DNA from: Paraspadella gotoi
Lineage: Eukaryota > Animalia > Chaetognatha
Assembly (NCBI GenBank): GCA_051294375.1
Contig: CM119265.1
Coordinates: 12,950,124-13,014,123, forward strand
DNA: 64,000 nt
Direction: 5' to 3'
Part shown: in pieces, positions 747-57,900 of the stretch
Numbering within the stretch: position 1 is the first letter of the stretch
Layout of the letters: every line of letters begins with the position of its first letter
Notes under the pieces: generated by a model
Told to the model about the DNA's origin: nothing
What the model saw: the letters and a program-made list of their open reading frames with translations, nothing else
Databases searched by the model: none
Position numbers and translations under genes: made by a program

Positions 747-3700
747 CATGCGCTGTAGATTTTGGGCGTGCTGCTGCATTATAAGCTCAGCGTAGTAATG
801 GTTCCCCTGTTGCCTGTAATACTCGGCCCATGCCAAGCTGTAGTCAGGTTGGCCGCCCGCTCCGGTCGTGGCTCCAGCCTGGGCATTCATGGTGGCTGGA
901 AATAAAACGCATTATATATATATATATATAAATAAAAATAAAAAAAATAAAAAAAAAACCGAGAAAATTTGGACAAATTTTAAACTTGGTAAAAACCTGG
1001 TTCAGCTGGGTTCGAGGTTTGCTGTCCTCCCCATTGGCCATTGGCTTGTTGTCCACCCCATTGGCCATTTGTCTGTTGTCCTCCCCACTGTCCACTGTTA
1101 ATTTGGCCGGTCCCATTGGCGGCCGGTGCTCCCCACTGGCCACCAGGTGCGGCCGGGCCGGAGGCCTGCATGTTACCCCATCCGCCGGCCGCCGGCGCCG
1201 CCATCTGTCCGGACCCCTGGGCTCCCTGACCCTGAGGACTGCCCCACATTCCAGGCCCACCCATTCCACCTTGCGGACCTTGTTGACCGGCGCCTGTAAA
1301 GCAAACAATATTAAAGGGAAAAATGCCTGTAATCAAACAATATTAAAGGGAAAAAATTGAAGGCAAAATGCAAGGAGATTCTTACCTCCGCCCATGGGCG
1401 AGGTTGCCAACCCAATCTTCTCAGAAATCATTCTTTGGGCTGTTTGAATCTGATCCCCGTTCCCGCGAATGATGAACAATTTCTCAGAAGGGTTGGGCGG
1501 TGGAGCACGACTCAACTCCACGTGGGCGCCGGACATGTTCTTTATTTCTCGGATAGTCTCGCCGCCTGGGATTAATCCGTGATACAAAATTAAAAAACGA
1601 TTAAAGTTTGAAAATATTAAGACGAGGAATATAAAACAAACATAACATTATATTGGTTGTACCAATTTCATAATATTATTACCTTTCCCAATGACGAGGC
1701 CACACTTGTCGGCCGGGACGGGGAACTGCACTTCGTCTTGATAACCACCTGCACCGCCGTTGACTTGGCCAGCGCCGCCCATCCAGCCACCTCCTTGACC
1801 GCCGCCCCCTTGCCGTCCGCCGGGACCGCGCCCGCCGTCCCTGGCTTTGGCTTGGGCGATCAGGTCCTGAATGATGCTGGTTGCCATTTGTATCGAATCA
1901 GGAGTACCGCTAATTGTGCATAGACGCTCGGGGGAAGTTCCTGAGAGAGCATAGTGGGCAAGGATTACGAGTTTACATTTACTACTGTTGTAATTCGAGA
2001 CTAAACTAAATTTAAACACGAACCTTGATCATCCTGTTTAAACTGTATTCTCGCGTCGCTCTCTTGTTGGATCTTTTTGATCATATCTCCGTTTTTGCCG
2101 ATAACGACTCCGACGCATGCGCGAGGAACGGGAATATCGACGGCACCTTTTCCTCCGCCGACGTACGCTCCACCAGCGCCACCGCCGTAACCGCCACCGC
2201 CACCGCCACCGCCGCGCCAGTTCAAACCCCCACCATTGGCTTTATCGTCGTTAATTAACTCTTGAACCATGTCTTTGACACGCTGAAGAATGAATAAAAA
2301 TTGTTACGAGAAGTAAAACCATGGGAAAAAGAATCTCCACCTCCAAAATAACAAAAATTAATAATTCGGTGATTTATTTTACTGCCCGTTGGAAAAAGGC
2401 AGTTCAGACATCAGTATGTTGGACATAAACTCTCGTTGTAATCCGTCGATCTTATTTACCTTTTGTAGAAGTGTTTAAAAATAATAACAAACTGTATTGT
2501 TAGTAAACAAATATCGATTGTTTATATTTTTAAAAACTTTTACAAAAGGTAAATAAGATCGACGGATTACGAGAATTTATGTCCAACAGCTAATCAGTAT
2601 TCAATGAGTTAAGGGGTAGTGGGTAAACGCTCCAGTTCAGTTTAACCTCAGGTATCAGCGGACTACAGAAAGCTAAAAGCCGACTGGGGTCAATGGGTTC
2701 AGTAGCATTTAGCACTCAAAAATAATTGGTCAACGCTCTGCAACTAACATGTTGTAATAAAATCTTAAACCTTTCTGATTTTTTTGATGTAATAAAAATT
2801 GATTTACGTTTATAGTTTTCGGATAATTTGTTAAAACAAAAACTTGCCCTTTAATCAGCGACGTTCACAAAGATTTCAATCAACATTAATTATTAGACAA
2901 AGGATTACGGCTTGCCAATAGTATAGAGTCCCGAGATGGTAGAATCACAAAATTATAGGTTTTTCAACAAAAATTGAAATAGAGTTCTTGGTAATAAAAT
3001 TAATAAGAAAAGAATTGAAAAAAAGGTAATCTCGTTTTGTTTTTGCGCTCTAAAGAAAAATATTTATGTAGTTCTTGTTTCTAAAATGACATGTAAAATA
3101 AAAAAAAACATCTATTTTACTAGTTTACTCGTTAACTAGTTTTTCTAGTTATGGTAATTAAGTCTCATCATCATTTTCCGTATGAGCATTTCGATAGTGA
3201 TCTAGTTAAAAACAAACGACACTTGGATAGAATATTATAGCACCAAAAGGTATTGCTAGTTAAAATTACAACTAGCCTAACTTAATATTTGAATTCACAT
3301 AATTTCAACAACAAATAATAAAAATATTTCCGAAATGCAATATAAAACCACGAGAGAAATTTACCAAAATTGTCATATCTTAGTATTTTAGATTATATAA
3401 AATATGTAGTCGGGCTTTGCATAGGTTCACCCCATCTATAAGCATGACACCTTCAGTCGTGACCCGGTGGCTCATTGAGAAAAGCCATCAGCTCATGACA
3501 GGGTAGGTACCGGGTTGGGATTGAACCCGGTACCTACCCTGCGGGAAGCGTGAGGACGGCCGTAAACCGCCTTGGGGGCGTGAAAAACCCTCAAGCCTGG
3601 TTCTAAGCCCAAGACCTGTTCCATGGCTGTTAGAGGGGTTAAAGAAGTTGCGGATAATCATCTTCAGCCCACTTAGCACTTTATCCACATATATCTTTAA

Positions 3701-5078
3701 ACATTCAATAAATATAAAACCAAATCACGATTAAAGTCATAAGATTTAAGTAATTACAAGTTTTCAGGGGTTAACATTAGTGACAACAACAATAACAATA
3801 CCTGGCATTTCTGAGGATCTCCAGATATCCTTAACGGCTTTGGCTGGGTTGACGCAACGTTGGAATCTTGCACCATGACCATTTTAACGCCTTCCCGTTC
3901 TTGCAATTGTTTGATGGTTTCTCCTCCCTTTCCAATCACGAGGCCAACTTTGTTTCCAGGGACAAGGATCTCGACGGTGGCGGCGGCACCAGTACTTGCG
4001 CCACCACCGCCGCCGGTGCTTCCTCCACCACCACCGCCAGGAATACCCGCGACACCGCTACCCATGCTTGCCATGCCGGCGTTGGTCTTTTCATTAATAA
4101 CTTCTTGCAAAAGCTGTTTGGCTTTTGCAACAGCCTCCGGAGAACCGGTTAGGGTACACTGGCGTTCAGGGCCAGTGCTTACTTGATTAATCTGAATCTT
4201 GCAACCAGATGTGGCTTGCAGTTTGGTTATCTGCTCACCACCCTTTCCTATGATTAGGCCAACCATCCGGTCAGGAACCTTATAATCCTCGGTAATCATG
4301 CCAGTTGGCGCACCGGCAGGTCGGTCGCCACCACCAACAGCCGGGTTATTCATTTGAAGAGCAGCAGCCAACTCCCGAGCCCTAAAATAAAACCATTATT
4401 ATAAAGGGCTATTGTCGTACAATTTGTTAAAAAACACAAACATAACATAACGAAACGCGCCAAAATATGCAAAAAAATAATTTTATATAGTAAAAGAACT
4501 ATATAATGTAGTATAAAAATAATTTTATACAGTAACAACTATATAATGTAGTATAATGCTCCAGGGTTAAGAGATAAGAAGCAAGAGGTAAGAGTAACTG
4601 GAGGGAGAGCGAGTGAATGACAGCTTATGCCTTATTCAATACGTAGCAATTTATCAAAAATAAAAAAAATGATCCGAGCCTTAAACTTACTTTTGCTGAG
4701 CAATAAGGAGGTGAGGGGGTTGACCTATATAAGAAAAGAAAATCAAGGTTACGCATTGCGTTTTTATAGATAATTTAAAATAAAAAAAAAACAAAAAATC
4801 AGAGCTCTGTAACACATCAATAATGCGTCAGTTCAAAGTGAAGAAAATTTTGAAATCATCATGTACTATTAACTAATAAGTAATAAAAGGTATCGATTAC
4901 AAGATGCTAATATCTTACCCATGTCCGCAACGCCGTTCATATTTTCTTCGGATGGGGGGCGCTTTAGGCCTCGATTAGGGGGTTGAGAGCCCTCGTCTTG
5001 AGAGAAGTAAGGAGGTTGGAGCAGCGTCGACGAAGACGAAATTGACGATGCAGAGTTCAAAGTTATTTTGGCCGCGAT
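747..5078 (-). CDS. FUBP1: Far-upstream element-binding protein / KHSRP / Drosophila PSI-like KH-domain RNA-binding protein (multi-exon; 3' end runs off the window, first coding exon not resolved)
   Basis: Four type-I KH domains with GxxG loops ([47 protein letters not shown]|GGETI), an N-terminal IAAKI motif, Gly/Gln-rich linkers and a C-terminal [16 protein letters not shown] repeat. GT-AG exons at approximately 4918-5078, 4691-4724, 3801-4382, 2022-2283, 1683-1941, 1386-1567, 997-1294 and 747-896. The paralogue symbol is approximate. Confidence 0.93.
2417..2588. mobile_element. Short palindromic MITE-like element in FUBP intron
   Basis: Long imperfect inverted repeat: tgttggacataaa...gtaatccgtcgatcttatttaccttttgta / tacaaaaggtaaataagatcgacggattac...tttatgtccaaca. 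Confidence 0.7.
3405..3689 (+). mobile_element. GC-rich TGTAG...CCACA solo-LTR-like element carrying a twister-like ribozyme
   Basis: 285-bp GC-rich island in an AT-rich intron, with TG...CA termini and multiple hairpins, including an 18-bp perfect stem at 3499-3541. Confidence 0.6.
3541..3619 (+). ncRNA. Type-P5 twister-ribozyme-like motif
   Basis: GCGGG aa G[C]GT GA GGA CGGCCG T^AA ACC GC CTTGGGGG..CCCTCAAG CCTGG TTCTAAGC CCAAG a CCTGT. All stems and both pseudoknots can be drawn, with some G-U pairs and one P4 mismatch. Confidence 0.7.
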
Positions 5079-6559
5079 CTAAACACCAAATTACTTTAGC
5101 TTACTTTATATTTTCTTTTCCTTTCATGCTATAGTTTCAGTTTTTAACCTCTTTAATCAACAAAAAAAAACTAAACCAAATGACTAGAAAATAATCCTGT
5201 AAATGGAAAGAATACAGAAATACAGAAAATTACTTTTCTTTAAAGAAAAACTTAATAAAAAAATTATAAAATACGTCAATTATTACAACCAAATTATGTC
5301 TTCAGTTGAGAAAAATGTTATTAATAATATTGGCAGCAAGGAAACCAACGTGTATGGTTTTTAACTTTTAATCTAGGCAAAAGCCAACATACAATCTTGG
5401 CCGGCGTCTCTGGAAACGGGACAGGAACGTTGGGCCGGCCTAGGAAATCATTTAACGAAAAAAAAAGGGCAGCCATTTCGATTTGCAGCCTATTGGCAGC
5501 CTGCCACGATGGCCGAGTGCTGCAGCCAACGAACTACGCACATAGCATCAATCTTTTTACATACCTTTGAGTTTAAACGAGAGGTTTGTAGGAACAAGGA
5601 CTAACAATGAAGGAATTATATTCGATGTTAATGCAAGAATTATAGATGAAGCGAAAAATAAGAAAAATTAATAGGAAAATTCAGAAGCCGCTGGATGGCT
5701 TATTTTCCCCACGAGCCACGTTTCTTCTCTCTGCCTGTCGAGAGACTGAAGGGAGTGAACAACGAATAGAAGAGAGAAATCCGCAGACAAAGCGCTGCAG
5801 CGACGAGGTTGAAACCTGCAGGCGAAGCGTCCAAAGCGCCTCGTCTTACAGGAAGAGGAAGAGTAAAACAAAATGTTCTTTGCCCAGAGAGGGAGCGTAG
5901 AAAAATAAAGACAGCAACGAATTGCGAAATGAACAACAGAATGTAAGGTTTATATGAACTACTTATGTGGATTTAAATAATTTCCATACTCAAACAATTT
6001 AAAATGTTGATAGTAACAGTGTTGAAATATTCTTAAATAAATATTTGTCACTATATGAGCAAATTTATTTTATTTTTCCTCATTTATGATTGTGAGATTG
6101 ATCAGATTAATTAGAAGCTTAGCTGACACAAACCGTAATATTAAATAAATTTACTTCCACTAAAAAAATCCCTTATGTTATGAAAACCCTTACATGAAAT
6201 TTTCAAAACTTATTAGAAATAAGAGTAGTCCAAGATTTTGAAATGTTCCCCCTGTTAGTGTAAATATATAAAAACTCAATTTGCATTGAATAATACAATA
6301 AAAAAAACCGACGCTGCTGATTGAAAGCTTGTAGAGACCTGCTACGTCATTATCTTATAAGAGTGATGAAGGCCCTAAACCACCAAAGCCTGTCCAAAGT
6401 CAGGGGCAAGATAGCTTATTTATTAAATGAATGGATAATTTTTATATTGGTTGTACCAATTTTATGACATGGACGACCATAATTAGCAAACGCTAGTTTT
6501 TTATACATTGATATTCATAAGAAGTGAAATCCTAGTAGGCGAAAGTAAAATATTACCAT

Positions 6560-10509: not shown

Positions 10510-13500
10510 ACATGTGCCTTTCTCGGTATTGGAAAGATTGGAGATGATACCGAAAAGAGGGAAGTATAAGTTATGGATGAAAAGCTCTTCCCGATTCCAG
10601 AGTAAATGATATTTATTATCCTAACTATAAGTATAAACCCTCTTAACCGTAAATACCTTTAACCCTAAACTACCCCTAAACCACACTTAACCCTTAACCA
10701 CTCTTAACCCCGGTAGGTGAAAGTAAAATTATGTCAAATATTTTGTAACACTGATAAAATGTTTGAGATAGTATTTGTATAAGCTTAAGATATTAAAATC
10801 AAAAGGGGCGGAGGTACAAAATTTTATTCTTGATATCTACTTTCAGGTAAAATATATATTTTTTTAAATCAATCTTAAATTATTTTTATGGATTCTGATA
10901 AAGCACAAAAAGTTAAAATGTAATTACAACTTTTAAAAATTCTTACGTTTTTTGCTCAAAATTAAGAAAAACTTATAAAATTATCGAAAGATAATGATGT
11001 TGATGAATTTTAACTGTTTTACTTATTTTTCTCCCACTTATAATCAAAATATGAAAAAAAATTATACTTTGTGTAGACAACTTTTTGCAAGCTACCTGAA
11101 TCTGATCTTAAAAATAAAAAAAATCATAAAATAAATTTTAGCCTTTCCTATCCATAAATATTAAAAAATTAATTACTAGGGTAAAGAGCCATATAGGTAT
11201 AGAGTCATATTAAATTTTTTTTGACTATCCTAATTTTAAAAAAAAATGTTTAAAATTTCGTTTGAACAGGTGCTCAATTAAAATTTTTGACCCAACTTAC
11301 CTTAATAGGCCACCCCCTACTTAAGACACTAATTTGATTTCCATGGACCAAAACTTTCTAAAATGGCACGAAGCACTCAGTCTCAGTCAGTGAAAGTAAA
11401 ATTTTGTCTAAAATAATTGAGAACAGAGAAAGAAAGAAGGACAGAAAGAAAGAGAGTGAAGATAAGTTCAGTCAGGCAAAGGTCAGCGACCTAAGACCTC
11501 AAGGAAGCCATTGTCCTCGTTTATCCATGTAGTGAAGGACCGGGTTCCACGCATCAGTCTTGACTAACGCGCCATCTCCCTGTCCAATACTGTACCGTCG
11601 AATCTCTAGTGCCTCGTATATCATATGCGAGTTTCTTTTTATTTTTCCCCAACTTTTTTTTAACAATGGAAGCGTTGGTAAAGTCAGGGATTTCAGGGAG
11701 CCTCACATCCACCATCGTTCAGTCAATCCCATTGGTTCCATCCACAGTCCTAACGACTCTGCGTTGGCAAAGCGAGACCGTCCTCGGATAACCGAGCCAG
11801 TTGCAGGCGGCACCACTGAGGGTCGGAAGGCACCACTGAGGGTCGGAAGCCAACATTGAGATGCCCCATCGCAATTGGCATTACAGGCAAACCCGGCTAT
11901 TACTTTATCCCCATTGTTTTTTTCAATAGCCTTGTGTTCATTTCATCTAGTTTTAAAGTTTCCAGATGTTTGACCAATGTAGACCGACTTATGATTTATC
12001 AGAACAAGGACATTGAAACTTATAAATGCCTTTTTTTAGTTCAAGGTCTGGCTTTGTACGGTTTTCATTGCAAAAGATGTCCTTGAGTTTAGCACCAGCT
12101 TTTGAAACAGCTCTTTCGTGAAAGTGCAATGTTGGGTATAAAGGGTAAGTGGCAAGAGTAAGGCCGAATGAGTGGCCGAATGACCCTCTTTTTGGTCTTA
12201 AGTCACTAACCTTAGTCTGACTGAACTTTTCTTCAATCTCTCTCTCTCTCTTCTTAATTATTTTGTTTTATTTTTTAATTTTTTTAAATTTTCCTAAGTC
12301 AAAATATATGTAATAAAAACAAATTGATTTTTGCCTTTAAACCGTATTTCTCCGTTTTAAAAATACATGTTTGTATTACAATTGTGCTGGTGTAAGCGAG
12401 GCACTTTTTATTTACTAGAATGACACTGAACTTTTAATTTTCAATTGTTCTGTTTAGGATGTCAAATTTACTCTCGCCGGAGGTAGTGGAGAATTTGAAT
12501 GAAGAGAGAGTTGCCTTGACACCAGGAATAAATGAACGGCACAATCAGTTCGATGAAGTGGTAAGGACGAGGGGGACAATCTTAAGAAGAATGGACGTCT
12601 CAAGAACTATGAAATCGGTACAACCAAAAATTATTTATTAATTCATGTATCCAAAAACTATTTTAAAAATTTTCTCTAACGGTTCTACTCTGATAAAATA
12701 TTTTCAATAAAACTTGAGCTGCAACTCTTAGTTTATTATTCTTTTTTATTATTTATTATTCTCTGTACTTTTTACTTGAGCGAGGTACACCACAACATAT
12801 TCGAGACTAGCGAATGCGTGACTGCGACAGTTTTTTTTAATAAAACTTTTGCTTACTTAAAAATCTAGGTTTAACATAAGAAAAAAATAGTTTCATAAAT
12901 TGGGCTTCCTGTTTTCAATCAGTTTTTACTAATAAATGTCGGATAACCAAGAAAAAAAATGTTTGCATTTATTTTGGATATTCGCAAGAGAAATCCAGTC
13001 ATTTATTTGGAATACCCAATAGAAAGGACTTAAGGAGTTGCTAATATAATAGTTTCTTAAATCTTAGATTGAATGATCCTATCTTGCCCCAAACTTTGGT
13101 CAAGCTTACAAGTTAAAGAAGCTGTTTGGTAATACCTTATGGCTAAAAATATCTGTATTTTTACTTAGAGTACGTGTTTTAAACGCTTATCGCCAAACCA
13201 ATCTTTGTGGATGACAAGTCCTCGACAGAGTGTCCTGCCAAGACTTCACGCATATGGGAATCAAAGACGTACATCTTCTGTAATGTCGGTTGGTGGGACC
13301 AGAACCGACATACGGTTAAGAATACCGTTCAAGCAACACATCGGAAATCTTGAATATATCAATCAGGTTCATTCTAGTCTATTTCTTAATCACTTTTCAC
13401 GTTTTAAAATCAAAACCGAATTCTTCACAACGAAAAGATTAAATGCTCAATAACACGTAGAATCTAGACATGATAAAATGAAACGCTTATCGATTCTAAA

Positions 13501-15452: not shown

Positions 15453-16160
15453 GTAAAAAAATCGCATCAAATAGGACCATTTCCATAGTCATTTTACTTA
15501 AATAATGACGATATCCTAAACGTTGTGGCAGTACTATTTTAAAGCTGCCTTTCCGCTATCCGTCCTCAGTCTCAACAGTGCGTCCAGGGATCTATCCCTG
15601 GGTATTACCCATTTGTCCATCATATACTTAATCAATATTTACTACCACTTTTATAACTAGTGAAGCACAGTATAACATTGAAGTATTTAAATATTTATAA
15701 ATGCATAGGCAATAAAAATATTTTTTGTAAAAATTTTATTTTTTAAGACCGGATTCAGATAGCCCATAAAAAGTTGTCTTCACAAAGTATAATGCGTTTT
15801 TCAATATATCGATGATAAGTGGGTCAAATAAGGGAAAAACCCTTAAAAATCATCATCATCATCAACATACCATAATTTTTATAGTTTTTACTAATTTTAA
15901 CCAATAAAACATAAAAATTTTGAATTCTTGTAATAATATTTTTTATTTATTTTTTCCAAGCTCTACCCGAATTCGTTTTTAAAAATTCTGAATTTGAAAT
16001 ATAAAATTTTTATGATTTATAGTAATACGATAAACTTTAAATGCTTCTATGTTATTAACTATACATAAAATCTTAATTTTTTTTTTAATTTCGTTATCCC
16101 ACAGGGATGCTTTAACGTTATTTATATGACAGATCTCGTAGTATCCAAGTTATGATTTAA

Positions 16161-16228
16161 ATGAGACAGGACGTCGGGACCAGTTTAATCATGCCAGTGA
16201 TAGGTGGTCACTGAGGGCCCGCACTCCA
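16161..16228 (+). ncRNA. Degenerate type-P5 twister-like motif (24.5-kb subfamily)
   Basis: ATGA GA CAG GAC..GTT T^AA TCAT GC CAGTGAT aggtg GTCACTG AGGG CCCGCACT. P2 ATGA/TCAT is compensatory relative to ATGT/ACAT at 24.5 kb; L4 and P5 are decayed. The element's 5' end (TGTGGCAG) lies at 15524, separated by another insertion. Confidence 0.55.
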
Positions 16229-23633: not shown

Positions 23634-26600
23634 CTATGATCCAAATTCAATAGTGTCTTCCCCGATTCTTTTGTAAGTGTAATTTCCTTTTCCATCCATG
23701 TATAGAAAGAACTCGTGATAGTTCCACAGCGACTTCCGATGTGATACTGTAAACAACGTAATCCCGACCTGAATGGAAAAAAAAGTTATGTGATCTTTAC
23801 CACTCGTGTTTTGGTTAAATCTATATCTCTCTCTCTAAATTTAGTGTTGTGGTAGCACGACTTAAAGCTGTCTCACTGCTGTCCGTCCTCAGCCTCGTCT
23901 CAATGGCTGAGCAGAAGGGTAGAGTGATGAAAAGATTGAGCGATTGAACATTATTTTTTTACTGCCTATGGACATGTAATCAATGAATTTAAAATCCTTT
24001 AAAATTTTTTTAAAGCATAACAGTATAGTAAATTCAATTATTTATGTAGTAATATCCTTCTAAAATCATACAATTTTAAAATATTTTTATTTTATTTTAA
24101 AGAACAGATTTGGATTCGCCATTTTTCACCTTTCCCCCCCCCCATTTTAAATGTTGAAGACGACATAATTTTTAATAACATGTTTTATATTTTTGATTTA
24201 ACTTTTTATGAAGAATCTGAATCTTTATAAAAAGTTTTACTATTTTATAAGGATATTACTATAAATATATTGTATTTTACTATTCTGTTCCCGAGACTAT
24301 AATAACACCCACGCTTACAATTGCTTAAAGTATGAATATCACGCCTATGCCCTACTTCTCTGGTAATGCTCTAGATTCACCCACTCGCCCACTCTCAGGA
24401 TTGAGGCCCCTGGGGAGAAGTCTGGTGGGAGGATCCTGTGGCAGCACAACTTAAAGCTGCCTCACTGTTGTACGTCCTCAGCCTCGTCTCAATTGCTGAG
24501 CAGGCTAAATCCTAAAGAGTCCTGGGTTAAATCCTCGGATATCCCAGTTCTGGCTTAAATGTGACGGAGCCGGTTTAAACATGCCAGTGACCGGAGGCAG
24601 TCACTGAGGGTCCGCAGCCCCTATGCCAGTTGGTGAGATACCCTGCGCCCCGTATATCTTCCCGTTGCCATAGTATCTTCTTTCTTGCCACTTAAGAATC
24701 GTGAAGACGAAAGAGAAAATATGTCGAAATGGAAAACTGGGCGTTACCTCTTTGCAATAAGCGTACATATAACCCTCAACGTCAACGGAAACTGCCGAGG
24801 TACATTCGTCGAGAATTGCGAACTGGGGTTTGTGATAAAAAAGGCGAGCCATGGCAATACGTTGCTTCTCTCCTGTTGCAAAACATTTGATTTTAAATGA
24901 AATATCACAATTTTATAAATGAAATAAAACTAAAGGCTACAATCAAGAAAGAAAAGACTTACCTCCAGAAAGAACGTCCATCCAATCACGCTCAGTGTCC
25001 CACCCAGTAATGTCTTCTCTGTCCAATAGGTACCTAAGTTGCACTTTATCCAACAAATCCGCCAGGTCCGCGTCGCAAAGTCCCTTCGACATCACGTCGT
25101 TGACGGAGTCAGGATAAATAACCTGATCTCGCAAAGTGCCGATAGGCATGTACGGTCGTTGTGGAATGTAGAAAAGTTTCTTCTTGTCCGGTTTTGTCAG
25201 CCTACAAAAGTTTTTATGTAGTTATATCCTGGGCTTACTAGGTCAGGTGATAATCATAATGATTTGGCGGTATTTTAATCACAGGGGGAAAAATGAGCAG
25301 GAAGACACAAAAAATTATAACTAACCTTCCGCCAAATAATGGCCATAATTCTCCAAGAATCCTAAACAGTGAGCTCTTCCCACAGCCATTAGGACCACAG
25401 ATAATGACGTTGTGTCCCGAAGTGACTTCAAAATTCATTGATTTGACTAGCATATCGCCGTTTGGCGTGACCAGAGGCACACCTTCGAATCGGATAACGT
25501 GATCACGATGGAGGATTTTTCCGGATCCAGGAATTAGCGGCGAAATCTGATACGCGATTAAGGAAATGAAAAATAACTTACTGGATAATGAAAAGAGCAT
25601 TTTTTATTTGTAAAATAAATTCTTCCTGGTCGGTGATTTTTTTTCTGCTTCTTATGAGCACAAATGTAAAAAAAAAATTTCCGAAAAAAAGACCGATGGT
25701 TTTTCGAATATTACACAACCACCCTTAACCTTAACCAGTAACAACCTCTAACCCTAACTACCCCTAACCTAAACCACCCTTAACCTTAACCAACCTTAAC
25801 CTTGACTAACCCTTGACCTTAACGACCCCTAACCTTGAATAACCCTAAACTTAACCAGACTTTACTTTTTTTTCCCTGTAGTATCAAACCACAGTAATGA
25901 TATATGGGAATAGAAAAATAACCGATCGGCTCGGTTCCTGTCGTCGAAAGTAAAATGGTGTATTTTATTGAAACAAACCATTTGGAAAGTATTCTTCCTA
26001 TCGCCACCAGCGTGGTTCTCTAACTCGCGAGCTGTTGCGGTCATTGTCCTTTCGTATTTCCCCCGATTTAAGTCGTTGAGAACGTCCACAAGTGAGCTGA
26101 CTCGAGCCGTGTAACTGGGAAGAGTTTGTTGTGACATATGATGTGACAAATGCAAATTGTTTTAATTATTGCTACTTCGTACTAACCCAGCAAGCTTGGT
26201 CATTTCACGACCAGCCAAAACTAATCTCCCGATGGCTTCGGCAAGTCGAATCAACATACGACCGCTGAGGTAATATTCTTCCAACCTTGTGGACAATTGT
26301 AGCAAAATCAAATAATGATAAGATGTAATTAATAAATTATAAATAAATATTTAATAATATAATATAATATTTAACTCGCCTTTCTTTGTGCGTCTTGTCA
26401 AAATGCTTTCCGCTGTAGGCAAGAAAAGGTCGAGAAACGACAAAAAAACCAACTACAGTTGCTAAGTATTTCGCAACTATGTTGTCCACCATTCCCATTG
26501 AGAATTTGAAAGTAATAACGTCACGAAGATGATCTACTAGTCGTTTAAACACCTGCATCAGGGTTATGTGCTCCCTTTTGTTACCTGCAACAGAATCATA

Positions 26601-34400: not shown

Positions 34401-36974
34401 TTATTTCTCCTGCCTTGTTTGATAATAAAATCTTTATCAAATGCCAGAAGAAAATATTAACGAGTTCTTGAGATGCAAAGCTGTCGGAATCGTAAATTTT
34501 ATTTTAAGCGATATTTTTGCCTAACTAACGGCTTTAATAGCCTAATTAGAATATTTTTAGACTTATGTAGAGTTTGAAAATACTTTTTTATGAAAATATC
34601 TTTTGGAAATATATATCTAGAATGAAAATAAAAATACCATTTGACTGTTATAATTTTCAAAGACGTCCATATTTTTTTAAATTGTAACTAGGACAGTAAA
34701 CAACCAGAATCCCCAGTACAGTAATAATTCTCCATATACTCCATAGTATGACCCCCCTTAGTTAGCAAACTACTAATTTTATTTTCAAACATTGATCAGT
34801 CTGTTCAATTAATATAAATTTCATGATAAGTACCTGATCATGTGAGCATAAACATCGTTTTCGGAGGATATGGTTGCTTGTGCCAAAAAATGAAGTAGCT
34901 GCGTCAAGAGGATTCATTGAAATTATTTTTTAAATAACTTGCTTATTAAAACGTGACCGTAATTCTGAGTGTTCACGTGACTACACAATTATGAAACATT
35001 CACAAGAAGCATTTACCGATACATTATCAGTCTGCTGATTCTGTAATTATGAATTATGCCGCATTGAATTTCTGGTCATATGATTACTTTTTTTGGGTCA
35101 TTATGTGACTGCACAACTGCTAAATTTGACCTGTTCACCAAAAAAAAAACCTTTATAAAGTAATCAATACTCAAAATATACAAACAAAAAAAATATTAAA
35201 TGCATGGTGGACTAAAATCCGCCAACCGTTCATCAGCGGCCATTGGTGCCAGAGGCAAGTCATTCGCCTCCCAACCCAAAGGTCCGGGGTTCTTGCCCGG
35301 TGGTCGCCTAGCAGTTAAGAGGGGCGGGGCGCTTAACCCGCCTATAACACGGTGTTACAGCCTGATCCGAAGCTCAGGGACTGCTTATATTGAACGGTTC
35401 TGTCACTAACACATAACAATAATTACTGTCTCTTCAAATGAATGGATAATTTTTATATTGGTTGTACCAATTTCATAGTATACTCACTACTCACTACTAA
35501 ATATATCGCATTCGCAATCTTAAGACTTACCGTGTCATTATTTTCTGCCTTGTGATTCGGATCGGCACCGAAAAATAATAAAAGCTTAATCAATTCGAGA
35601 TCCTGTTCCGTCAAAGCTAAATTGAGAGCCGCTTCCCTCCCCCACCCAACGGAGTTGGGATCAGCACCATCGACTAAGAGGCGTTCAACAAGGGCAGGCC
35701 CTGCAGGCAATCCGCGTAACAAAGGGTAAGTGAACTCTTCGTGTGGCCCGTCGGGAACATTAAGTGGAGCCGAAACGGGCGCCCGCAAAAGAGTTTCGAT
35801 CATTTCTGCGTCCCTATTTCGTGCCACAAGTCGATGCCACTCATCCAACTCTTCTAATTTTCGCTTTCGTTCGGGGAAGACGTATTTGTCGCGAGTCCAC
35901 GAGCTCTCGCGTATCGACTCGAGGAGGAGTTCGATTGCTTGGGACAAAGGCAAGATGTGCCAGTCAAAAGGTGCATTGGCGCCCCCGTCTGAAGAAAAGG
36001 CAAAGGTCTTGAGGTCGGCACCGGCGTCGACCAGGGACTGGAGGCAGAGAATTCTCCGGTACATAATAGCGACGTGGACGGGTTGAAGACCGCAGGCGCT
36101 TGTTTTGTTGCTGACGTCGGCGCCATTGGTAATCAACTTATCGACGAGACGGTGGTACCCCAGCATCGACGCAATGTGAAGAGGATACGTGCTCGCCATT
36201 AGGTTCATCATTTTCGGGTTATTCAATAACGACTCAAACTGCCCCATTGTTTGACACCGGCGAGCGGAGTCGAGAAGAAGTTTTACACCGTCTTCCTTCC
36301 TGAAATTGGTAGGACGAGACATATTTTAAGAACTTGATGAACTTTTTGTTTGTAAAGAGCTTGAGACACTTTTACAAAGCTATTACCAAAAAAATATATC
36401 TCACCTGCATCTACAGACTCTAATTGGGCCTAATGGTCCGATATCCTTCACTTTCAAAGAGAGAAGGAAAGCTCGAATGAGATCGTCGCTCTGCTGCTCG
36501 CTCTGTACGCTGCTAGGCGGCGAAGGTTGGTCCGTTTCCATGGCATCTGTTGAACTGGTCAAGAAGCAGTATATAACGATTTGCATTCACGTTGCGCGTG
36601 AGCTGTATCTGTTTGTGATATCGCTATCATCGATGATATAAAATCGAGAAAACAAATCACCTTACAGTTCCAGCGGTTCGGGGGTAAATTCTTTCTCTCC
36701 ATCCCAAGCTACCAGGATAAAATCCGGCTAAAGTGTCTATTTCAAAGCCAACTTCATAAAATTGCCAGCAGGAACAGGTAATGCTACTGCTGGTACCATA
36801 AGGTATCCGTCCATGAGAAATGCCGTAACTAGTCTCACCATTGGAGATGGCGCTAAGAAGAAATCGATGATTAGCAAATTGAGAGTTTTCAATAAGTTTT
36901 GACTCAACGGCTTCCAGGTCGCCAGTGACTAACGCCTCGAAAAAAGAAGATTCTTCTTCGACGGAGATGGTCAT
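28472..36974 (-). CDS. Ankyrin repeat and SOCS box-containing protein (ASB family)
   Basis: Multiple ankyrin repeats (YPLHIASMLGYHRLVDKLITNGADV, GETALMDA, TALHSACWCN, TPLYVACHRGHFEVARLLIESG) and a terminal SOCS box PPTLATIVSNWLR...NLPLPVQLKKRL. Exon structure is only partly resolved. Confidence 0.85.
29565..29713. mobile_element. Helentron/DINE-like non-autonomous element with telomere-like tract
   Basis: Inverted ends ttttactttcgccgaccg / cggtcggcgaaagtaaaa enclose degenerate (TTAGGG)-like repeats. Related ends occur at about 10625-10730, 31748, 37126/38460, 44930, 51465-51560 and 54790. The superfamily assignment is an inference. Confidence 0.6.
30801..34757. mobile_element. Nested transposon cluster inside an outer TIR element (ASB intron)
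   Basis: Outer TIRs of about 80 bp (30801-30880 / 34681-34757). Inner palindromic element 31867-32971 (TAGGGC..GCCCTA), element 32980-33562 (TAAGGCGTAG..CTACGCCTTA; flanks CTAACTAC/CTAACTAT), and 33607-33955, which is repeated at about 60576-61178. Confidence 0.75.
32430..32472 (-). ncRNA. Minimal type I hammerhead-like motif (degenerate)
   Basis: Minus strand AACG CTGAAGA A GGCTT gcaacta AAGCC AAAAC ATGT C CGTT. Stem I, stem II and palindromic stem III are present, but catalytic G12 is A. Confidence 0.55.
35204..35437 (+). mobile_element. tRNA-Gly-derived SINE-like element fused to a twister-like ribozyme
   Basis: 73-nt tRNA-like head at 35236-35308 (acceptor GCGGCCA/TGGTCGC, T-stem CCGGG/CCCGG, TCGCCTCCCA anticodon region), followed 2 nt later by a twister motif. 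Second copy at 57526-57759(-). Confidence 0.8.
35311..35384 (+). ncRNA. Type-P5 twister-ribozyme-like motif
   Basis: GCAGT taa G[A]GG GG CGG GGCGCT T^AA CCC GC CTATAACA cgg TGTTACAG CCTGA TCCGAAGC TCAGG g ACTGC. The conserved GA is GG in this copy. Confidence 0.8.
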
Positions 36975-41500: not shown

Positions 41501-41574
41501 TTGCTTTCCGGAACTACGGATCCGGCGGTAGGCTTGCTACCGGTGGTTTAACCGGCCCGTCACTCTTTTTGCAA
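41501..41574 (-). ncRNA. Type-P5 twister-ribozyme-like motif
   Basis: Minus strand TTGC aaaaa G[A]GT GA CGG GCCGGT T^AA ACC AC CGGTAG caagc CTACCG CCGGA TCCGTAGT TCCGG aaa GCAA. T2 is AC/GT (compensatory vs GC/GC). It lies in a GC-rich island at about 41390-41580. Confidence 0.82.
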
Positions 41575-46800: not shown

Positions 46801-49800
46801 ATTAAGGGGTGAACTTAAGTAATATTTTGCCTGATTAACTGAGCAAAGTGTTACTGAAATTGCCTAGGTAAAGAAATGATTTTTCTTAATTAAGATAAGC
46901 AATTTCTAAATCAAAATATTTTGCTTATATTTATTTTTAAAGATAAATAAAACAATATATTTTCTTTTGTTTTAATTTCGTTCTCAACTATATTTTAAAT
47001 TTGTTTATTACTATATTTTTAAGCCCATAAATACTTTTCCCAGATGGCATGAAATATGAGTATCAGCATTAAGTATGTAAACTACTTGGCTACTACCAGA
47101 CCCAGAACCAATAAAATTATTAAAGAAGATTAATTCATTGATAAATAATTATACTATTGCAACAGCCGGGTTGCCTGTGATGCCCATTGGGATGGGGGCA
47201 TCTCACTGTTGGCTTTGGGGCTTCCGACCCTCAGTGACGCCTCCAGTCACTGGCGCCGGTTACCCTAGGACGGTCTCGCTTTGCCAACGCAGAGGGAAGT
47301 CGTTAGGACTGGATGGAACACTACGCCTGGGATGGTGTGTTCCCCCTCTGAGCCAATGGATTTGGCTGATCGATGGTGGACGTGAGGCGGTGTAAATATA
47401 CCGCCACAGGATCTCCGGGCCAAGACATCACTCAGGTTCCTCAAGCCTGAGAGGTGTCTGACAAGACTGTTACCATAGTGGGAGAGAGAGAGCGCGAGTT
47501 GTGGGGGCATAGGCGTTTGTCGTAGCGTACCCCAGGGGCATAGGCGATTTGTTCGTAGGCGTACCCTGAGAAGGTTGCGTGTTCGATAGTAGGGCTCAGC
47601 ACTTATGGCAACAGCCGAGTTGCCTGTGATCCTCATTGGGATGGGGCATCTCACTGTTGGCTTTGGGGGCTTCCGACCCTCAGTGACGCCTCCAGTCACT
47701 GGCGCTGTTACCCTAGGACGGTCTCGCTTTGCCAACGCAGAGGGAAGTCGTTAGGACTGGATGGAACACTACGCCTGGAATGGTGTGTTCCCCCTCTGAG
47801 CCTATGGATTTGGCTGATCGATGGTGGACGTGAGGTGGTGTGAATATACCGCCACAATACTTAAAAATGTATAAATTTTCGTTTGAGCATGTACTCATAA
47901 ATTTTTGACTCGCCCCATTGTGTGGGACTACCCCTACTAGTACTTTGATCTCCAAGAGATTAAAAGACATTTCATTCTCCAGTTATGAAGAAGTACAAAC
48001 ACGCCAAGGAAGATTTTTATTGTGTCTCCTGGACGACTTTGTCCGTTCCCAATCCAGAAGACGAAAGGAGAGAAAAAATCAACATCCTCGCTGCCGCGGG
48101 CCAGCAGGCAATTATTTATCTTCAATCCTTGATTTACCCAGATTGCAGCAAACCGATAATGTCAATACAATGCTTGCCAAAAACCAATTACTAAGTAATT
48201 GAGTACAATTCTCTAGGGGGACATTAAACTGCTTCAACCGGATCAACTTCTTTGCTACGCTCAAATGAAAGGCCACAAGAAGCACGTAAACTGTTTGCTC
48301 TTCCACCCCCACAATCCTTCCCACCTCTTCTCTGGCGCCAACGACAAAACTGTTATGTTGTGGGACATCGGAATTCCCGTGCTTCCGACGTTTAAAACGA
48401 AGTTCAAAGCGTTGATCAGTTTTCGAGTTCCTGTTTCTGGTCCTTGCGACGTTCTCAATTTGCACTTTCATGACGACAGGTAAAGCATGATCTGGGCAAA
48501 GTGGAAATCTTCAATGAGCAAAAACAGAAGGCAACGCATCAAAGACTGGCGTACTAACTTATTTTTGCTCTACATTAATACCGATTGATGCTAAGGAGCA
48601 CATTTCAAGTGTCACATGAGTTGCTCTGACCGAGGCAATCCACATGGTTTCCATCAGGCACAACTGTTTTCTAATTCTTTAGTTTATTCTATTTGTTTGG
48701 TCGTAGGTACATCGTTGCGTCCACGGAGAGCCATTGCATTATCTGGGATTCGTCAGATGCCGAAACCTGCCGCAAAAGTGTTGGAAAGTCGGCCACGAAA
48801 ACAACGAAAACCCCGAGAAACAGAAAGCATCTCCTCGAACTTGAGCTTCCGTTCATGCACACAACTTCAAGTGTTATGGACGGTTTAGTGGGTAATTGCT
48901 TTACGTAGTTACTTATTGCGGAGTTCCTGTTCAAAATATCCTTAACTATCGAATTATTTATAATTTTGATAACTCTTGCTTACTAAATATTTTTAACTAA
49001 CCTTCCTTTCTTCCTACCCCGTGTCCGTTCGCGAGTGACACCAAAAAAATATTTTCTATACTTTAAATATTTAATAAATATAATTCATAAGTATATCATT
49101 AGTTGGAGAACTACTGGACGTTTTTTATGTACGAGTTTCATTTTGTGTTTAATTCATTTACTATTCTTTGTTTAATTTTTTATCTAACACAGTAAAATTG
49201 GCGAAAAAAGACCATTTTAAGCGTGTTCTTGATTGAATTTTAAAAAAAAATTTTCATCATAAGAAATTCTTATTAATGGTCTAATCAACGGAGTATATGA
49301 ATTATCGTAATGTTGAGTAACTTTTGAGTAATTATTTTTTATTTTTTTAATTTTAAATCTTAAGTTTTTTTTATACAATTTGTCCAATTAAAAAAAAATG
49401 CTGTCCCGAGCATATTCTTGACTGTTTTAAATAATTATTTCATATCTTAAGGATTCCCAGATAATTTTTAATTTAATGGTATAAATGAATTTTACTAATT
49501 TTAATTAATTAATAAGTAATTAATTTTTTTTAAGGATTCAGTTTTTTACTGAAGATGAAATTGGATGACTATTAAAGAAAGGTTGTTTTAATAAGTTAAC
49601 ACAAAATTTTTAATTCTTAATGAAAATTAAAATTATAAACGGTCCAGTACTTTGCTATAGAATAAAAAAAAAAATTTAAAAAATATTCATCAAATGAGAA
49701 ATGGTACGCATTTTTTTTTTGGTGTCACTCGCGAACGGACACGGGGTAGTCTCAGGAACCAAGTACGTACTACATTGATTTAATTTTTCTTTGCAGGCTT

Positions 49801-51904: not shown

Positions 51905-54900
51905 CTAATGTGTAATAAACTCCCGATGAGTGAAACCTTCTTCGGCAAGTCTGTTCAGCATTGGCCTGAAAAATAAAACAAAAATTAATACTGATTCTGA
52001 ATCTTAATAGACTTACCAGAATTTACCGGTAAATATGTTGCGCCATTGGTACCACCATTCCCTTGTCCTGAATCTCTCCGGTGAGCACCATCTTGGCAGC
52101 TATAGCGCATGGATAGCCAACAGTTTTAGCCATAGCAGAATATCCCCCTTCGTGGTCATCGCCTGAAAAAATACTGCTCTATCTTTTTTTTTCCCAAGAA
52201 TCAATTCACGAATAATAACGAGTAAAAAATATAGGCGAGAAATTAAATACTATTTAATATACAGTTAAATTACTCAGTTACAAACCGTAGCAAACAAAAT
52301 CGAGATGCTTAATTTCCTCCTTTTTGTCGGGCCATTCAACGTGAACGTCGTGGCGCATGATAATGATGTCCCTTTCTCCCTCGTCGTAGTTGAGCCTTCG
52401 CGCCAGAAACGAAGAAAGGCTGTCAAGTGGAGTCCCCTGCTTCTCAATCGGTTCACTGTCAACTAGTCCAAGGTCTTCCACCACCTGAAATACAAGGATA
52501 GCAAGTTGCACTTCAATCCCAAATAATAAATTATAATATAGTACTTAGAAGTAGCTACATAATAACTCCGACTAGTGTACCTTCAGCCGGTCAACGTTTC
52601 CTCCCAGGCGATCCAACAAAGCATCCTTGAGGTTTTCCACAATAATGTCGGGCGGCTTTCCAACAAGATGGCACATGAACTGTTTCCATGTAATCTCGGG
52701 CCCGTTTGGATGTAGTAGGGGGTGAGGTTGAGCGTCAATAAGACCCAGTTGCTGCAGGCCCATTATCGCATTGGCATAACCCTTATATCTGCAAAATATT
52801 TGTACAGAGCTCAAAGCAATGCTTTTCAGAATGCAAATTTATTTATTTATTACCTGAGAGTTCCTCGTATGATCGTGTCAGCGTTCTGTATTCCATATTC
52901 TTCTCCATAAGGAATAGAATTTCGATTCGGAAAACCTTCCAGATTAAAACCCGGCAAGAAATCCATAGATTGGCCACATTCCATAACGGCTCCTCCCCCA
53001 GGAATATCTATGATCTGTTATACAACAAAGATGAGGATTTTATACCAAATAATGAAATATACCTATTAAATCAAATGTGTTTTTAAAAATATATAAAGGA
53101 TTCATATTAGAAAATGCTCTTTCGTTTTTTTGAACCGAGAATCGGTTCCGATCAAACTACTAGACCGACATTGATAAAATTTTGCATGAACTAACTATAG
53201 GCCAATAGAAATGTGACTATCGGGGAGATTTTTAAAATTTGACCTACGACCCGAGATATGGGCCCCAAAGAGGCGAGCTGAGGTGGGAAAAAAACGGACA
53301 ATTTTTTTGCAAATTTTTAATCCCGAACAGTTTTTATTTGTCCAGAAAAGTAAATCTATTATTGTGAAAAAATAATTTTTGCCCGATTTCCAGGATCAAG
53401 AACAAATTGAACATAGGAGGTTTATGCCAGCTTTGGTGAGGAGAGCAAATGTTCAAAACAAGTTTGAGCAAACAATGTCGGATCTCTGCCCACGATCATT
53501 AGCGGTAATTAATTAATTAATTAATACAAACTACCCCGTGTCCGTTCGCGAGTGACACCAAAAAAATCTTTACTATACTTTATATATTTCATATATAATA
53601 TAATATATATATATATATTTCATTTCGTGTTTAATTCAATCCCTATACTTTGTATAATTTTTTATCCAAAACAGTAAAATTAGCGAAAAAATAACATTTT
53701 AAGCATGTTCTTGATTGCATTAAACAAAAATTTTATAATATATAAATTATATCATAAGAAATCCCTATTAATGGTCTAATGAATGGTGTAACGGAATTAA
53801 AGTAATGTTTAGAAATTTTTGAGTAATGATTTTTTATTTATTTTTTTCTTTGTAAATCTTAAGTTTTCTTTGTATAATTCATCCAATTAAAAAAAATGCT
53901 GTCCTGACCATGTTTTTTATTGTCTTGAATAATTATTTTGTATTGTAAGGATTCCCAGTTAATGCTTCATTTAATGGTGTAAATGAACTTCAATTATTTT
54001 AAGTAATTAATTCATAATGATTTTCTTTTTTTTTAATTCTGAAGATTAAATTGGATGACCATTAAGTAAAGGTTATTTTACCTAAGTAAATATAAAATTA
54101 ATTTTATGAAATTAAAATATAATAAACGTTCAGTAAAAATAAGAGAATAATGAGAGAATAAAATTTAAAAATATTCATCCAATGAGGAATGGTAAGCATT
54201 TTTTTTTTTTGGCACTCGCGAACGGACACGGGGTATATAAACTAAAATAATAATTTGATTGGGTAACTTTACTATTCGACGTCCGTAACCAACCTTAGGT
54301 ACCTTTGTTAATCAATTTAATTTGTTTTCCCTCTCGCGTCGAGACTCACTTTGCGCAATAATATTAATTTTTTTTTGTTCAGTAATACAAATTTTATAAT
54401 TTTATAATAAATAATAATTGTTTTAAATTTATTTTAATTGCTATTTTTATGTTTGAGGTAGAAAATGATTTGTCTGTTTACGTACGAGTTTTATAAATAA
54501 ACTAATTTCGGACATGTTTCAGCTTCAATGTAAGCCTTCATCAGAACAAAAACGAATTGATTTGCGAAACAAATATTTTCACAGACTTTCTCTCTCTCTT
54601 CAAACTTCTAAGTCTGTAAAAATATATTTTTTAAAAAATCAATTCTTTTTGCGCTGATTGAGGTTTAAATTGAAGCCGAAACATATCCGAAATATGTTTC
54701 TTAACTCGTTATATTTAAACAAACAGGGAAAGGAAAAACAATATCAGTCGCTCATAAGAAGCGAAAAAAAATAACCGACCGCAAAATCCCGGTCGGCGAA
54801 TGTAAAAATAAGCCATTTGATTAATAAATAATTAATTTGATCCGAAATGTTTTTAGCTCTTTTCATCACTGACCAGTGACCAGTGACCACGACAAAAGCA

Positions 54901-57900
54901 ACGACGACGATGGCGACGACGACAATTATGCCGATAACGATTGACTTGATTTATTGATTGACTAATAAATAAATTGATTGATTGATTGAATAATTAATTG
55001 ATTATTTTTTTAAAAAATACTAATTAAATTTTTTTAAAAATTTTTAACAAAATTATTCATCGCGAATTTCCTTTCGTTTCGTTGTGTTTGAATTAGTAGT
55101 AGAAGTTTGAATTTGTTTATGTACCAATAAAATCGTTGTTGTAAACAAATTCAAACTTCTTCTACTAACAAAATTATTATATTAGTTATAAAAATCCAAA
55201 TTATAAGCATATTTATTAAATGTCTATCATTATCTATCAAGCATAAGCTTAAATTTGAGATCTCTCACAACTTTTTATGATTTTTCATTATCGAATTATT
55301 TATAAAAATTATAATTTTTTATTTATTATTATTTATTTATTTATTAATTAGTACTTCTGAACGAATTATTTTTTAAAAATATGGATACAAATATGCTCTC
55401 AAAATGCAGTTCTACTTATTAGGCCTCGTTAATTAATAATAATTAAATTATAAAAAATTTATTATTAAAAGTTAATTCATTATATTTATTAATATATTTT
55501 ATATTATATATCAAATATTGAATGAAATGAAATTGGTACAACCAATATAATATAATATAATAATGAAATTTTTTAAAAATTTTATTAAATAATAAAAATA
55601 TAATTAGTATTAAATGCTGGATATGAGTTTGAATTAAAGCAATTAGCTAATATAATTACCCGTTATTTTATTTTAGATTAAGTTTTAATTAAGCATATAT
55701 TAAAAAAAATAAAATTAATAATTTTTTAAAATGTCGTTTTAATGCTTAATAAGTAGAATGCATTTTGAGAACATATTTGTACCTATATTTTTAAAAAGTA
55801 ATCCAATTTTAAATACTAATTAATTTTTTAATATCAAAAATTATAATTTTTATTAATAATTCAATAACAAAAATTTGCAGAAAGTTGGTGATGATAACCA
55901 AATGATGGATGCGATGAAAGTCATTCATTGATGCGATGATAGTCATTTATTGACGCGATGAGTCATTCATCGTAAATAAAAAACAAATGTGTTTGAGTGA
56001 GAGAGAGTCAATTAATTATTTTATTAATTAATACATCTTGCATTTACATTTAATATAAAAAGAAAAAGAAGCATAATCAATTAGTGAAACAGGTTTTTTG
56101 TTTTTTCTCTTTAAACTAATTTCCACTCAGACGATTCCATCGAAATTTAATTTCCAGCTCAATCACAGACTTTCCTACCCACATACAAATTTTTAATTCA
56201 ATCGCCCCATATACTCATCAGTAATTGGCGTTAAAAGTTAAGGGGGGGACGAACAAACGGACAGACATCGTTTTTTTTGGCATATTTTATCATTATTTGA
56301 TGTTCTGATTTAAGTCACTTACCGACAAGCTTTTGGGATGGGACATAAGGACCGACAAAGTGAATTATAGAGCCGAGATGTGCTGTGAGATGTCTTTGTC
56401 TAACTTAGACTAAGATTTAATTTGATGTATTGTTCACCTCATTATGTACTTAATTTCAAACAAAAGCATTTTTGATTTTAACACAACAAAAACGTAAAAT
56501 ATTAAATATTTTTATTTTGAACCCTTTATTATTAAATTTAGACCGAATTTTATTCTCATAATTAGCAGAAAAATCTATGATTAATGTAACGAATTTCATG
56601 ATAATATAATAAATATTTTCAGATTAATTGGACGACCAACGTTCTTTCCTCGAATAATTTACCTCACCATTTCTTAAATATCTCGCAGGTGACATCGTAT
56701 TGAGAAGAACGCCTCGAGGAGACCACGAAAATTTGTATCGAAGAGGATTTTCTAGTTTTGAAAAATGTACAAAAACCATTAAAAATTTTCAGATGACATT
56801 TTTGATTGCACCGGCATATGCCTTTGTGTTCTGCTCGTATGTATTGGTAAAGAAACAACAATCGGCGAGTTCAAGATGTTGGCGTTGCGCCGCAGTATCA
56901 CCCTTTTATGGACGGTGGACACATTTCCCGATAAGTATGTATCTACCCAAATCTAAAATATATGGTTGTTCACTAATCTTTAAAGCTTTAACTAAAATAA
57001 GCAAATATGTCTTGAAATATGCCGCACTGACTTTCTGATAACATGCCTTGTTACAGAAGTATAAAGCATATAAACAAAAATTACTTACTGATTCGTTACC
57101 CCGTGAGCCAGAAAGGATGGCACTAATAAAAGCGCTCCCATTCCTCTATGTATTAGATCCTTGTATTTTGATGCTAGTGCGGAGTACATATAGTATTCTC
57201 CGATCTAATACTTCAGGGAGTGGTCTTTTCATACAATTGAAACATTCTTTGAAATATTATACCACTTCATTGATAAGGAAGCCAGGTTCACTGGGAGTGA
57301 ATAAACAAGTCTGTGACAGAGGCTTGATTAAAAGCTTGCAGAAACCCGTTATGTTATTATCTTGCAAGTGTGATGGAGGCCTTAAACCACCAAAGCCTGT
57401 CCAAAGTCAGGGACAAGATAGCTTATTTATTAAATGGAAGGATAATTTTTCTATTGGTTGTACCAATTTCATACATTCAATTAGTTAAAAAAATCATTGA
57501 TGTTTTATATGTATCAAATGACATATTGAAGAGACAGTAATTATTGTTATGTGTTAGTGACAGAACCGTTCAATATAAGCAGTCCCTGAGCTTTGGATCA
57601 GGCTGTAACACCATGTTACAGGCAGGTTAAGCGCCCCGTCCCTCTTAACTGCAAGGCGACCACCGGGCGAGAACCCCGGACCTTTGGGTTGGGAGGCGAA
57701 TGACTTGCCTCCGGCATCAATGGCCGCTGACGAACGGTTGGTGGATTTTAGTCCACCATAATATGATAAATTCAATTTTATGAAGTAGTTTCTAATTTTT
57801 ACTTTGAGCCATCCGTTTAGACTCTCGGGGTACCAGTCTGCCAAGTATTAACAAAAATTAATGAGTTCTTTATAAATTATGCCGATTGGATTTCTGATCA

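Follow-up and report, generated by a model that had tools for sequence, protein, structure and literature searches.

Twister ribozymes in animal retroelements are known as type-P1 motifs at the 5' ends of Perere-3 elements (PMC8501958). A high-throughput test of twisters was limited to type-P1 (PMC11662667), and a search for new twister permutations reportedly yielded none (PMC10085705). Among other ribozymes, hammerheads with a short palindromic helix III cleave as dimers (PMC4209133, PMC6765202), a logic that is established for such hammerheads (PMC7229834, PMC7761336). Here we describe a 64,000-nucleotide (nt) stretch of the genome of the chaetognath Paraspadella gotoi (assembly GCA_051294375.1, contig CM119265.1, positions 12,950,124 to 13,014,123; hereafter, the window), which carries 14 twister-like motifs in six families, designated A to F. 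Judging from sequence, we think it reasonably probable that these are twister-P5-like motifs on high-copy retrozyme-like repeats and that they work as strand-swapped dimers by way of a palindromic P1 segment.

An initial annotation of the window had nominated nine motifs with the type-P5 twister order and covarying pseudoknots. All nine are present where it placed them, and seven keep that order together with both pseudoknots; the other two, at 11763 and 16161, are relics, the former through a duplication that overwrote T2' and P4'. The copies singled out as best, at 24550 and 41501, retain every P5, P2, T1, T2, and P4 pair and the GA, U^AA, and L4 letters, while one or two lesions are found in each of five others (3541, 35311, 57579, 47208, and 47656). 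The nine were not the full set, since family F, with five more copies, had been overlooked. Across the motifs, stems P2 and P4 and the termini in P5 are present (P2 is imperfect in family B), T1 occurs as CGG/CCG, CCG/CGG, TGG/CCA, or GGA/TCT, and T2 occurs as GC/GC or AC/GT. The GA in L1, the U^AA site, and the U..A.G letters of L4 are kept, the exceptions being a GA>GG change in 35311 and the relics.

Three kinds of evidence bear on the fold. A descriptor of the P5 order, composed after the motifs had been seen, was run on the window and on 40 local dinucleotide shuffles. It gave 6 matches with no mismatch (shuffle mean, 0.075; maximum, 1) and 10 with one mismatch (mean, 1.9; maximum, 4); at two mismatches there was no excess (25 matches; mean, 15.3; maximum, 28). 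The nominated copies recovered at zero, one, and two mismatches numbered two, five, and six of the nine, respectively. A looser descriptor was discarded after returning 109 matches at one mismatch in this A/T-rich window. Second, a covariance model was trained on 3541, 35311, 57579, and 41501 only (families A, D, and E). With E-values that are rough, this model found all five held-out family F copies (E = 2.5e-8 to 1.1e-6) and the held-out family C copy at 24550 (E = 7.6e-5), matched 47208 and 47656 of family B weakly (E = 0.19 and 0.35), and did not match 11763 or 16161. Third, in the four training sequences, which stand for three families and from which the structure itself was derived, 93 of 98 cells are paired and two-sided change is seen in 15 of the 25 pairs, a result that none of 500 shuffles equaled. 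The cross-family recovery and the pair covariation thus support the type-P5 order with covarying pseudoknots. As for covariance-model scores, which had been proposed as a check, the window-built three-family model finds held-out families, and the Rfam library gives nothing at threshold: at E <= 10 there were four Twister-P5 matches of 25.6 to 25.8 bits (threshold, 37.6), all on family F, and 24550 drew a single twister-P1 match (20.8 bits). The window-built model scored phage P5 loci weakly (<=21.6 bits) and out of register in three alignments, which we do not count as support. Taken together, the motifs are very probably type-P5 twister-type ribozymes, with self-cleavage predicted at U^A.

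The most informative feature of the motifs is the palindromic P1 segment. This segment, lying between T1' and U^AA, had been taken for an ordinary helix; it is a palindrome of only 6 or 8 nt in every family (Table 1), too short for a stable hairpin. Full self-complementarity is seen in 11 of the 14 copies, with at least one such copy in all six families, and the two central pairs are Watson-Crick in six of six family representatives around four different centers (GGCC, CTAG, CCGG, and GCGC). The central pairs of so short a palindrome cannot form in a hairpin. An intramolecular P1 hairpin would have at most 1 to 2 base pairs (bp) with a 4-nt loop and a positive free energy (+2.7 to +6.0 kcal/mol), and full pairing is available only between two copies, for which the self-duplex energy is -8.3 to -11.0 kcal/mol. 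Between the homologous families B and C, six of the eight palindrome letters differ and both segments are still self-complementary, with two-sided T1 changes alongside. When pseudoknots are left unscored, the nested strand-swapped dimer lies 11.7 to 15.1 kcal/mol below two monomers in the 11 fully palindromic copies, and the palindrome accounts for ~9 kcal/mol of this gain in families E and F. Cleavage would, in our moderately confident estimate, depend on dimer formation.

Palindromes of this kind were absent from the P5 twisters of viral contigs. A scan of such contigs gave 36 loci with 26 distinct matches, 25 of which have a stable 15- to 26-nt hairpin at P1 and none of which has a palindromic P1 segment; 15 of the 17 phage loci tested passed the Rfam Twister-P5 threshold. 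Among chance matches that shared this spacing, none was palindromic in either of two sets (0 of 13 and 0 of 8). A phage match with a 6-nt P1 segment (L026 and L032) was rejected as a parallel, being a tandem of type-P1 twisters. The two loci carry back-to-back type-P1 twister motifs (~90-240), and an Rfam gathering scan gave none for L026. Pattern scans for short-P1 variants returned only chance matches without P4, at 8 metagenome loci and 24 viral loci.

The carriers had been described as a radiation of mobile noncoding elements in very many copies, and contig pieces from DNA runs of the same organism support this. A 781-nt segment holding one F and one D copy was represented by 21,226 and 29,279 contig pieces in two such runs. 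Relative to single-copy depth, the depth summed over the ribozymes was ~36,000 (F), ~24,000 (D), and ~7,000 (C), values that over-count and are not copy numbers; this depth and the density in the window suggest thousands of copies per family. That the families are unrelated holds for the bodies of 14 of the 15 family pairs. The sole homologous pair is B (11763, 47208, and 47656) and C (16161 and 24550), with a z of 13.8 and 0 of 200 shuffles as high. Within B, 11763 represents a distinct subfamily, ~78% like 47208, and two F subfamilies differ around a 39-nt core and inside it at a bulged base only. In the 57579 copy of family D, both imperfect pairs are restored by the majority letters of other copies, as judged from 40 of 60 matches.

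Head-to-tail joints define units of 238 (D), 325 (F), and 448 nt (B), the last two also being the periods of partial tandems in the window, and contig joints from 57473 to 57158 (F) and from 57761 to 57524 (D) step back one unit. Eleven family F ends share a common 3' terminus with varied 5' truncation. In DNA run X1, 154 contigs run past a single 3' end of F into A/T-rich flanks that are unlike one another, and 141 plus 53 contigs do so at the 3' end of D; the 5' end of D, exactly one unit away, is fixed as well (69 and 83 contigs). The 3' ends of F and D often lie side by side, in tail-to-tail orientation in several DNA contigs (57473-57529) and as neighbors at 35436, which suggests a shared target preference. 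No hammerhead was found in the units by Rfam or a simple core pattern. The 5' truncation, partial tandems, fixed 3' end, and A/T-rich targets without clear duplication are traits of Penelope-like nonautonomous elements. The elements end 85 to 105 nt 3' of the predicted cut site rather than at the site itself, so the template was uncut at this position; as copies are intact across the site and some exceed one unit, the reverse-transcribed template would have been a circle or an uncut multimer.

Run X9 is RNA, as one of its contigs is spliced across three GT-AG introns; it gave no cover over one unique intron bin. X9 contains contigs of C, D, and F, which speaks to presence only, and the ratios of RNA to DNA depth (0.085 for F, 0.077 for D, 0.029 for C, and 0.005 to 0.027 for three other repeat bins) were not used as evidence of expression. 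One X9 contig, at a depth of 897.5, carries a family C variant (24323-24461) with a 55-letter replacement at 24388-24394; the same variant is present in X10 and is not among the listed contigs of the DNA run. Neither X10 nor X11 held an independent twister family.

These features probably reflect a retrozyme-like cycle, as far as sequence can tell. In the cycle that we propose, read-through or RNA polymerase III (Pol III) transcription of a tandem would supply multimeric RNA. Two motifs in the tandem transcript would exchange strands, their two palindromes forming one common 6- to 8-bp helix, and each active site would join the GA/T1' strand of one copy to the U^AA/P2/P4 strand of the other. 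Cutting at both sites would release unit-length RNA that a host ligase would circularize. A lone motif, whether in a circle or in a dispersed intronic copy, would cut poorly, and a circle would be protected by having one motif. A Penelope-type reverse transcriptase would then initiate copying at a fixed internal site and go through part of a round, one round, or more than one; internal initiation and A/T-rich targets have been reported for a Penelope-like element (PMC11167929). We give even odds to the fullest form of this proposal, an obligate-dimer twister marking a second, twister-based lineage of animal retrozymes that would have converged on the hammerhead palindrome switch, would spare circles and intronic copies, and would limit cross-pairing through family-specific palindromes. 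Penelope-like elements were present in this genome, as a decayed one lies in the window (Table 1), interrupted by stops, frameshifts, and a family B insertion. It has 14 relatives at E <= 0.001, some with a reverse transcriptase domain ahead of the endonuclease, and a search with its last 46 residues gave no match. This remnant is context and a candidate mobilizer at most.

Several observations count against the dimer-gated cycle. No Rfam model matched the window at its gathering score. A full palindrome is missing from 11763, 16161, and the F copy at 6351-6413; all three bear other lesions, but 11763 belongs to a distinct subfamily, whose own consensus may lack the palindrome. The permutation product for the palindromes (3e-6) overstates independence because the families share ribozyme ancestry. 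Most copies in the window are single, with only two partial tandems. From contigs, neither the ends nor the strand of the RNA nor any circle can be read, and DNA contains the joints too. Folded as circles, the units score only weakly better than shuffles (z, -1.6 to -2.8), and the Penelope-like remnant has no sequence in common with the elements. Finally, P1 is dispensable in known twisters (PMC5408937, PMC11662667), and monomers may therefore cut.

This last point underlies the alternative that survives best, namely, that the motifs are active monomeric mini-twisters, in which a 1- to 2-bp stem with a 4-nt loop lets each copy cleave alone and the palindrome is a reflection of a compactly folded loop or plays some minor part; the carriers would still be retrozyme-like. 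P1-less twisters cleave at a near-wild-type rate (PMC5408937), P1 imperfections are tolerated (PMC11662667), and 6 to 8 nt are able to bridge the helix end. However, a monomer leaves unexplained the Watson-Crick central pairs across four centers, including those of the homologous families B and C, and the short hairpin is unfavorable in every intact copy. Thousands of efficient intronic monomers would, moreover, be expected to cleave host pre-mRNAs. We regard monomeric action as unlikely.

The elements could instead be linear and short interspersed nuclear element (SINE)-like, with a tRNA-derived Pol III promoter, target-primed reverse transcription, and no circular stage, in which case the ribozyme, like that of schistosome Sm-alpha repeats (PMC6765202), would serve only to trim infrequent tandem read-through. 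In favor are a tRNA-shaped head in both D copies, seen by relaxed ARAGORN only (2 of 12 matches at score 85), box A/box B-like motifs in family C, the absence of T4 runs from B, C, and D, and the fixed 5' end of D. That end, however, precedes the tRNA-like head by 33 nt and is exactly one unit away from the 3' end, and family F has neither a tRNA-like head nor box B and contains three T4 runs. The more-than-unit partial tandems of B and F also fit poorly, as does the lack of a poly(A) tail or target duplication at the six ends inspected. A sigma-70 promoter was, as expected, not found at family D. A linear cycle of this kind is improbable; it is compatible with dimer gating and is thus exclusive in part only.

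Rated lower again is the possibility that the ribozymes are fossils, active in ancestors and now inactive passengers of repeats that were amplified as DNA, as satellite-like arrays or through capture by a DNA transposon. The presence of at least one lesion in 8 of the 14 copies and the low Rfam scores would fit this, but family majority letters restore pairs, and the F subfamilies are alike in the 39-nt core save for the bulged base. Fixed 3' ends with variable 5' truncation suit reverse transcription, and the elements have no terminal inverted repeats; such decay seems very improbable. The idea that structured repeats resemble the twister consensus by chance, which the after-the-fact descriptor and the lack of an Rfam gathering match might favor, is largely refuted by cross-family model recovery (E as low as 2.5e-8), the Rfam Twister-P5 matches obtained independently on F, and pseudoknot covariation, and its probability is negligible.

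The features of the window are collected in Table 1. Its G+C content is 34.5%, and it is animal DNA with intron-bearing genes, encoding a KH-domain protein, CPSF2, an ABCD3-like transporter, ankyrin proteins, and a phytochelatin synthase with ~55% identity to annelid, mollusc, and cnidarian proteins, among others. A single 7396-nt RNA contig spans the last ABCD3-like exons and ~250 nt and then enters CPSF2 (22300-24874, minus strand), an operon-like layout, although an assembled contig is not proof of one transcript. A perfect 18-bp hairpin stands immediately upstream of the family A motif (3499-3541), and weak C/D-box snoRNA-like matches (SNORD37, 26.9 bits, E = 0.57) occur near the KH-domain gene at 4797-4866 on the minus strand. 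Seven short repeats (6518, 10696, 29681, 38422, 44915, 51527, and 54775) end in a hairpin plus a CGGTCGGCGAAAGTAAAA-like motif, and some carry telomere-like TAACCC runs; they resemble Helentron-associated elements. Long inverted-repeat elements resembling miniature inverted-repeat transposable elements lie at 6560-7186, 31860-32978, 33016-33537, 49014-49749, 53531-54235, 55268-55887, and 60659-61080.

Table 1. Twister-bearing elements, motifs, and the Penelope-like remnant in the window
Feature	Position	Strand	Structure and context	P1 segment	Predicted cut after
Family F partial tandem	124..518	-	Period 325 nt; intact motif 179-241	AGGCCT	U216
Family A motif	3541..3619	+	Near intact, one P4 mismatch; between exons of KH-domain (FUBP-like) gene on opposite strand	CGGCCG	U3563
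Family F element	6318..6465	+	5'-truncated; motif 6351-6413 with one T1 mismatch	Palindrome broken	
Decayed Penelope-like element	11429..12263	-	C-terminal GIY-YIG endonuclease; inverted copy of 3' end at 12194-12263		
Family B element	11701..11901	+	5'-truncated; decayed motif 11763-11854; inserted in endonuclease domain of decayed Penelope-like element		
Family C relic	16142..16228	+	8-nt insertion in T1'; L4 and T2 broken; P5 absent		
Family C element	24300..24675	+	Homologous to B; box A/box B-like motifs upstream of ribozyme; 5' limit approximate; antisense within 979-nt last intron of ABCD3-like gene		
Family C motif	24550..24629	+	Intact	AGCCGGTT	U24576
Family D element	35204..35437	+	One full unit; tRNA-like head 35236-35308; motif 35311-35384 with GA>GG	GGCGCT	U35334
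Family F 3'-end fragment	35436..35477	+	No ribozyme; one of five such short pieces		
Four other family F 3' fragments	Ends near 1671, 29122, 29794, 55527	+, +, +, -	No ribozyme		
Family E motif	41501..41574	-	Intact	GCCGGT	U41550
Family B partial tandem	47155..47856	-	~1.6 units, period 448 nt; motifs 47656-47736 and 47208-47288 with P2 mismatches	TCCTAGGG	U47710, U47262
Family F element	57158..57473	+	Nearly full unit; intact motif 57358-57420		U57383
Family D element	57526..57760	-	One full unit, ~238 nt; tRNA-like head 57655-57727; motif 57579-57652 with one T1 mismatch		U57629
Family F element	59083..59267	-	5'-truncated; intact motif 59135-59197		U59172
Family F element	60425..60571	-	5'-truncated; core intact; motif 60478-60540		U60515

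What is new here is a nonautonomous, multifamily radiation together with palindrome covariation. A literature search yielded no P5 twister with a palindromic P1, no dimeric twister, and no twister retrozyme; Roth et al. 2014 and its supplements, which lay outside this search, may bear on the point. The word "twister" does not occur in the available text of a 2026 animal-retrozyme preprint (bioRxiv 10.64898/2026.07.22.740005). Naiads, Penelope-like elements without canonical hammerheads, are described in a paper whose available text likewise lacks the word (PMC8557442), and no paper joining twisters and Naiads was found. The motifs would represent a ribozyme class missed by current Rfam models, possibly with thousands of copies per genome, and bear on RNA processing in Penelope-like clades that have no hammerheads, such as the Naiads. 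If the dimer-gated cycle is true, retrozymes extend beyond hammerheads, and an unrelated ribozyme class has reached the same dimer switch. Two classes sharing the switch would argue that it is a life-cycle requirement, to cut multimers while sparing circles and host introns. A small ribozyme that depends on two copies and has interchangeable palindromes would also be a useful part.

Compared with described systems, the motifs share with the type-P5 twister (RF02684, clan CL00120; PMC5408937) the order P5-P2'-GA-T1'-P1-U^AA-P2-T2-(P3)-P4-L4-P4'-P5', both pseudoknots, the conserved G, the U^A, and the L4 letters. They differ in having a 6- to 8-nt palindrome at P1 where 25 of 26 phage matches have a 15- to 26-nt hairpin, in a P2 that is often 3 bp with a bulge, and in T1 and T2 pairs that depart from the usual GGG/CCC and GC/GC. 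The best Rfam score here, 25.8 bits, is under the 37.6-bit gathering score, the P1 hairpin is likewise lacking, and the setting is high-copy animal repeats as opposed to phage intergenic DNA. The Perere-3 twister (PMC8501958) also has a weak or absent P1 in an animal retroelement, but it is a type-P1 motif at the 5' end of a coding long interspersed nuclear element, where a target duplication forms P1; here the order is P5, and the motif is internal in noncoding units without target duplication. Schistosome Sm-alpha SINE-like repeats (PMC6765202) resemble families D and C in placing a tRNA-like Pol III promoter before the ribozyme in the unit, yet their ribozyme is a hammerhead, and family F has no such head.

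Animal non-LTR (long terminal repeat) retrozymes (PMC7229834; bioRxiv 10.64898/2026.07.22.740005) are, like these elements, noncoding units of a few hundred bases with one ribozyme each, head-to-tail joints (seen here for D, F, and B), very many copies, and no LTR or primer-binding site. Their ribozyme is a type I hammerhead, whereas a twister-like motif is found here; the present elements are mostly dispersed single or partial units known from DNA and RNA contigs, and the 448-nt unit exceeds the 170- to 400-nt range of those retrozymes. In the dimeric minimal type I hammerheads of Penelope-like elements, newts, and the axolotl (PMC4209133, PMC7229834), as in these motifs, a short palindrome stands in for the helix immediately 5' of the cut site, and a tandem pair is able to form a common helix. 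The ribozyme classes are unrelated, so the likeness would be convergent, with dimer activity shown for the hammerheads and predicted for the twister-like motifs.

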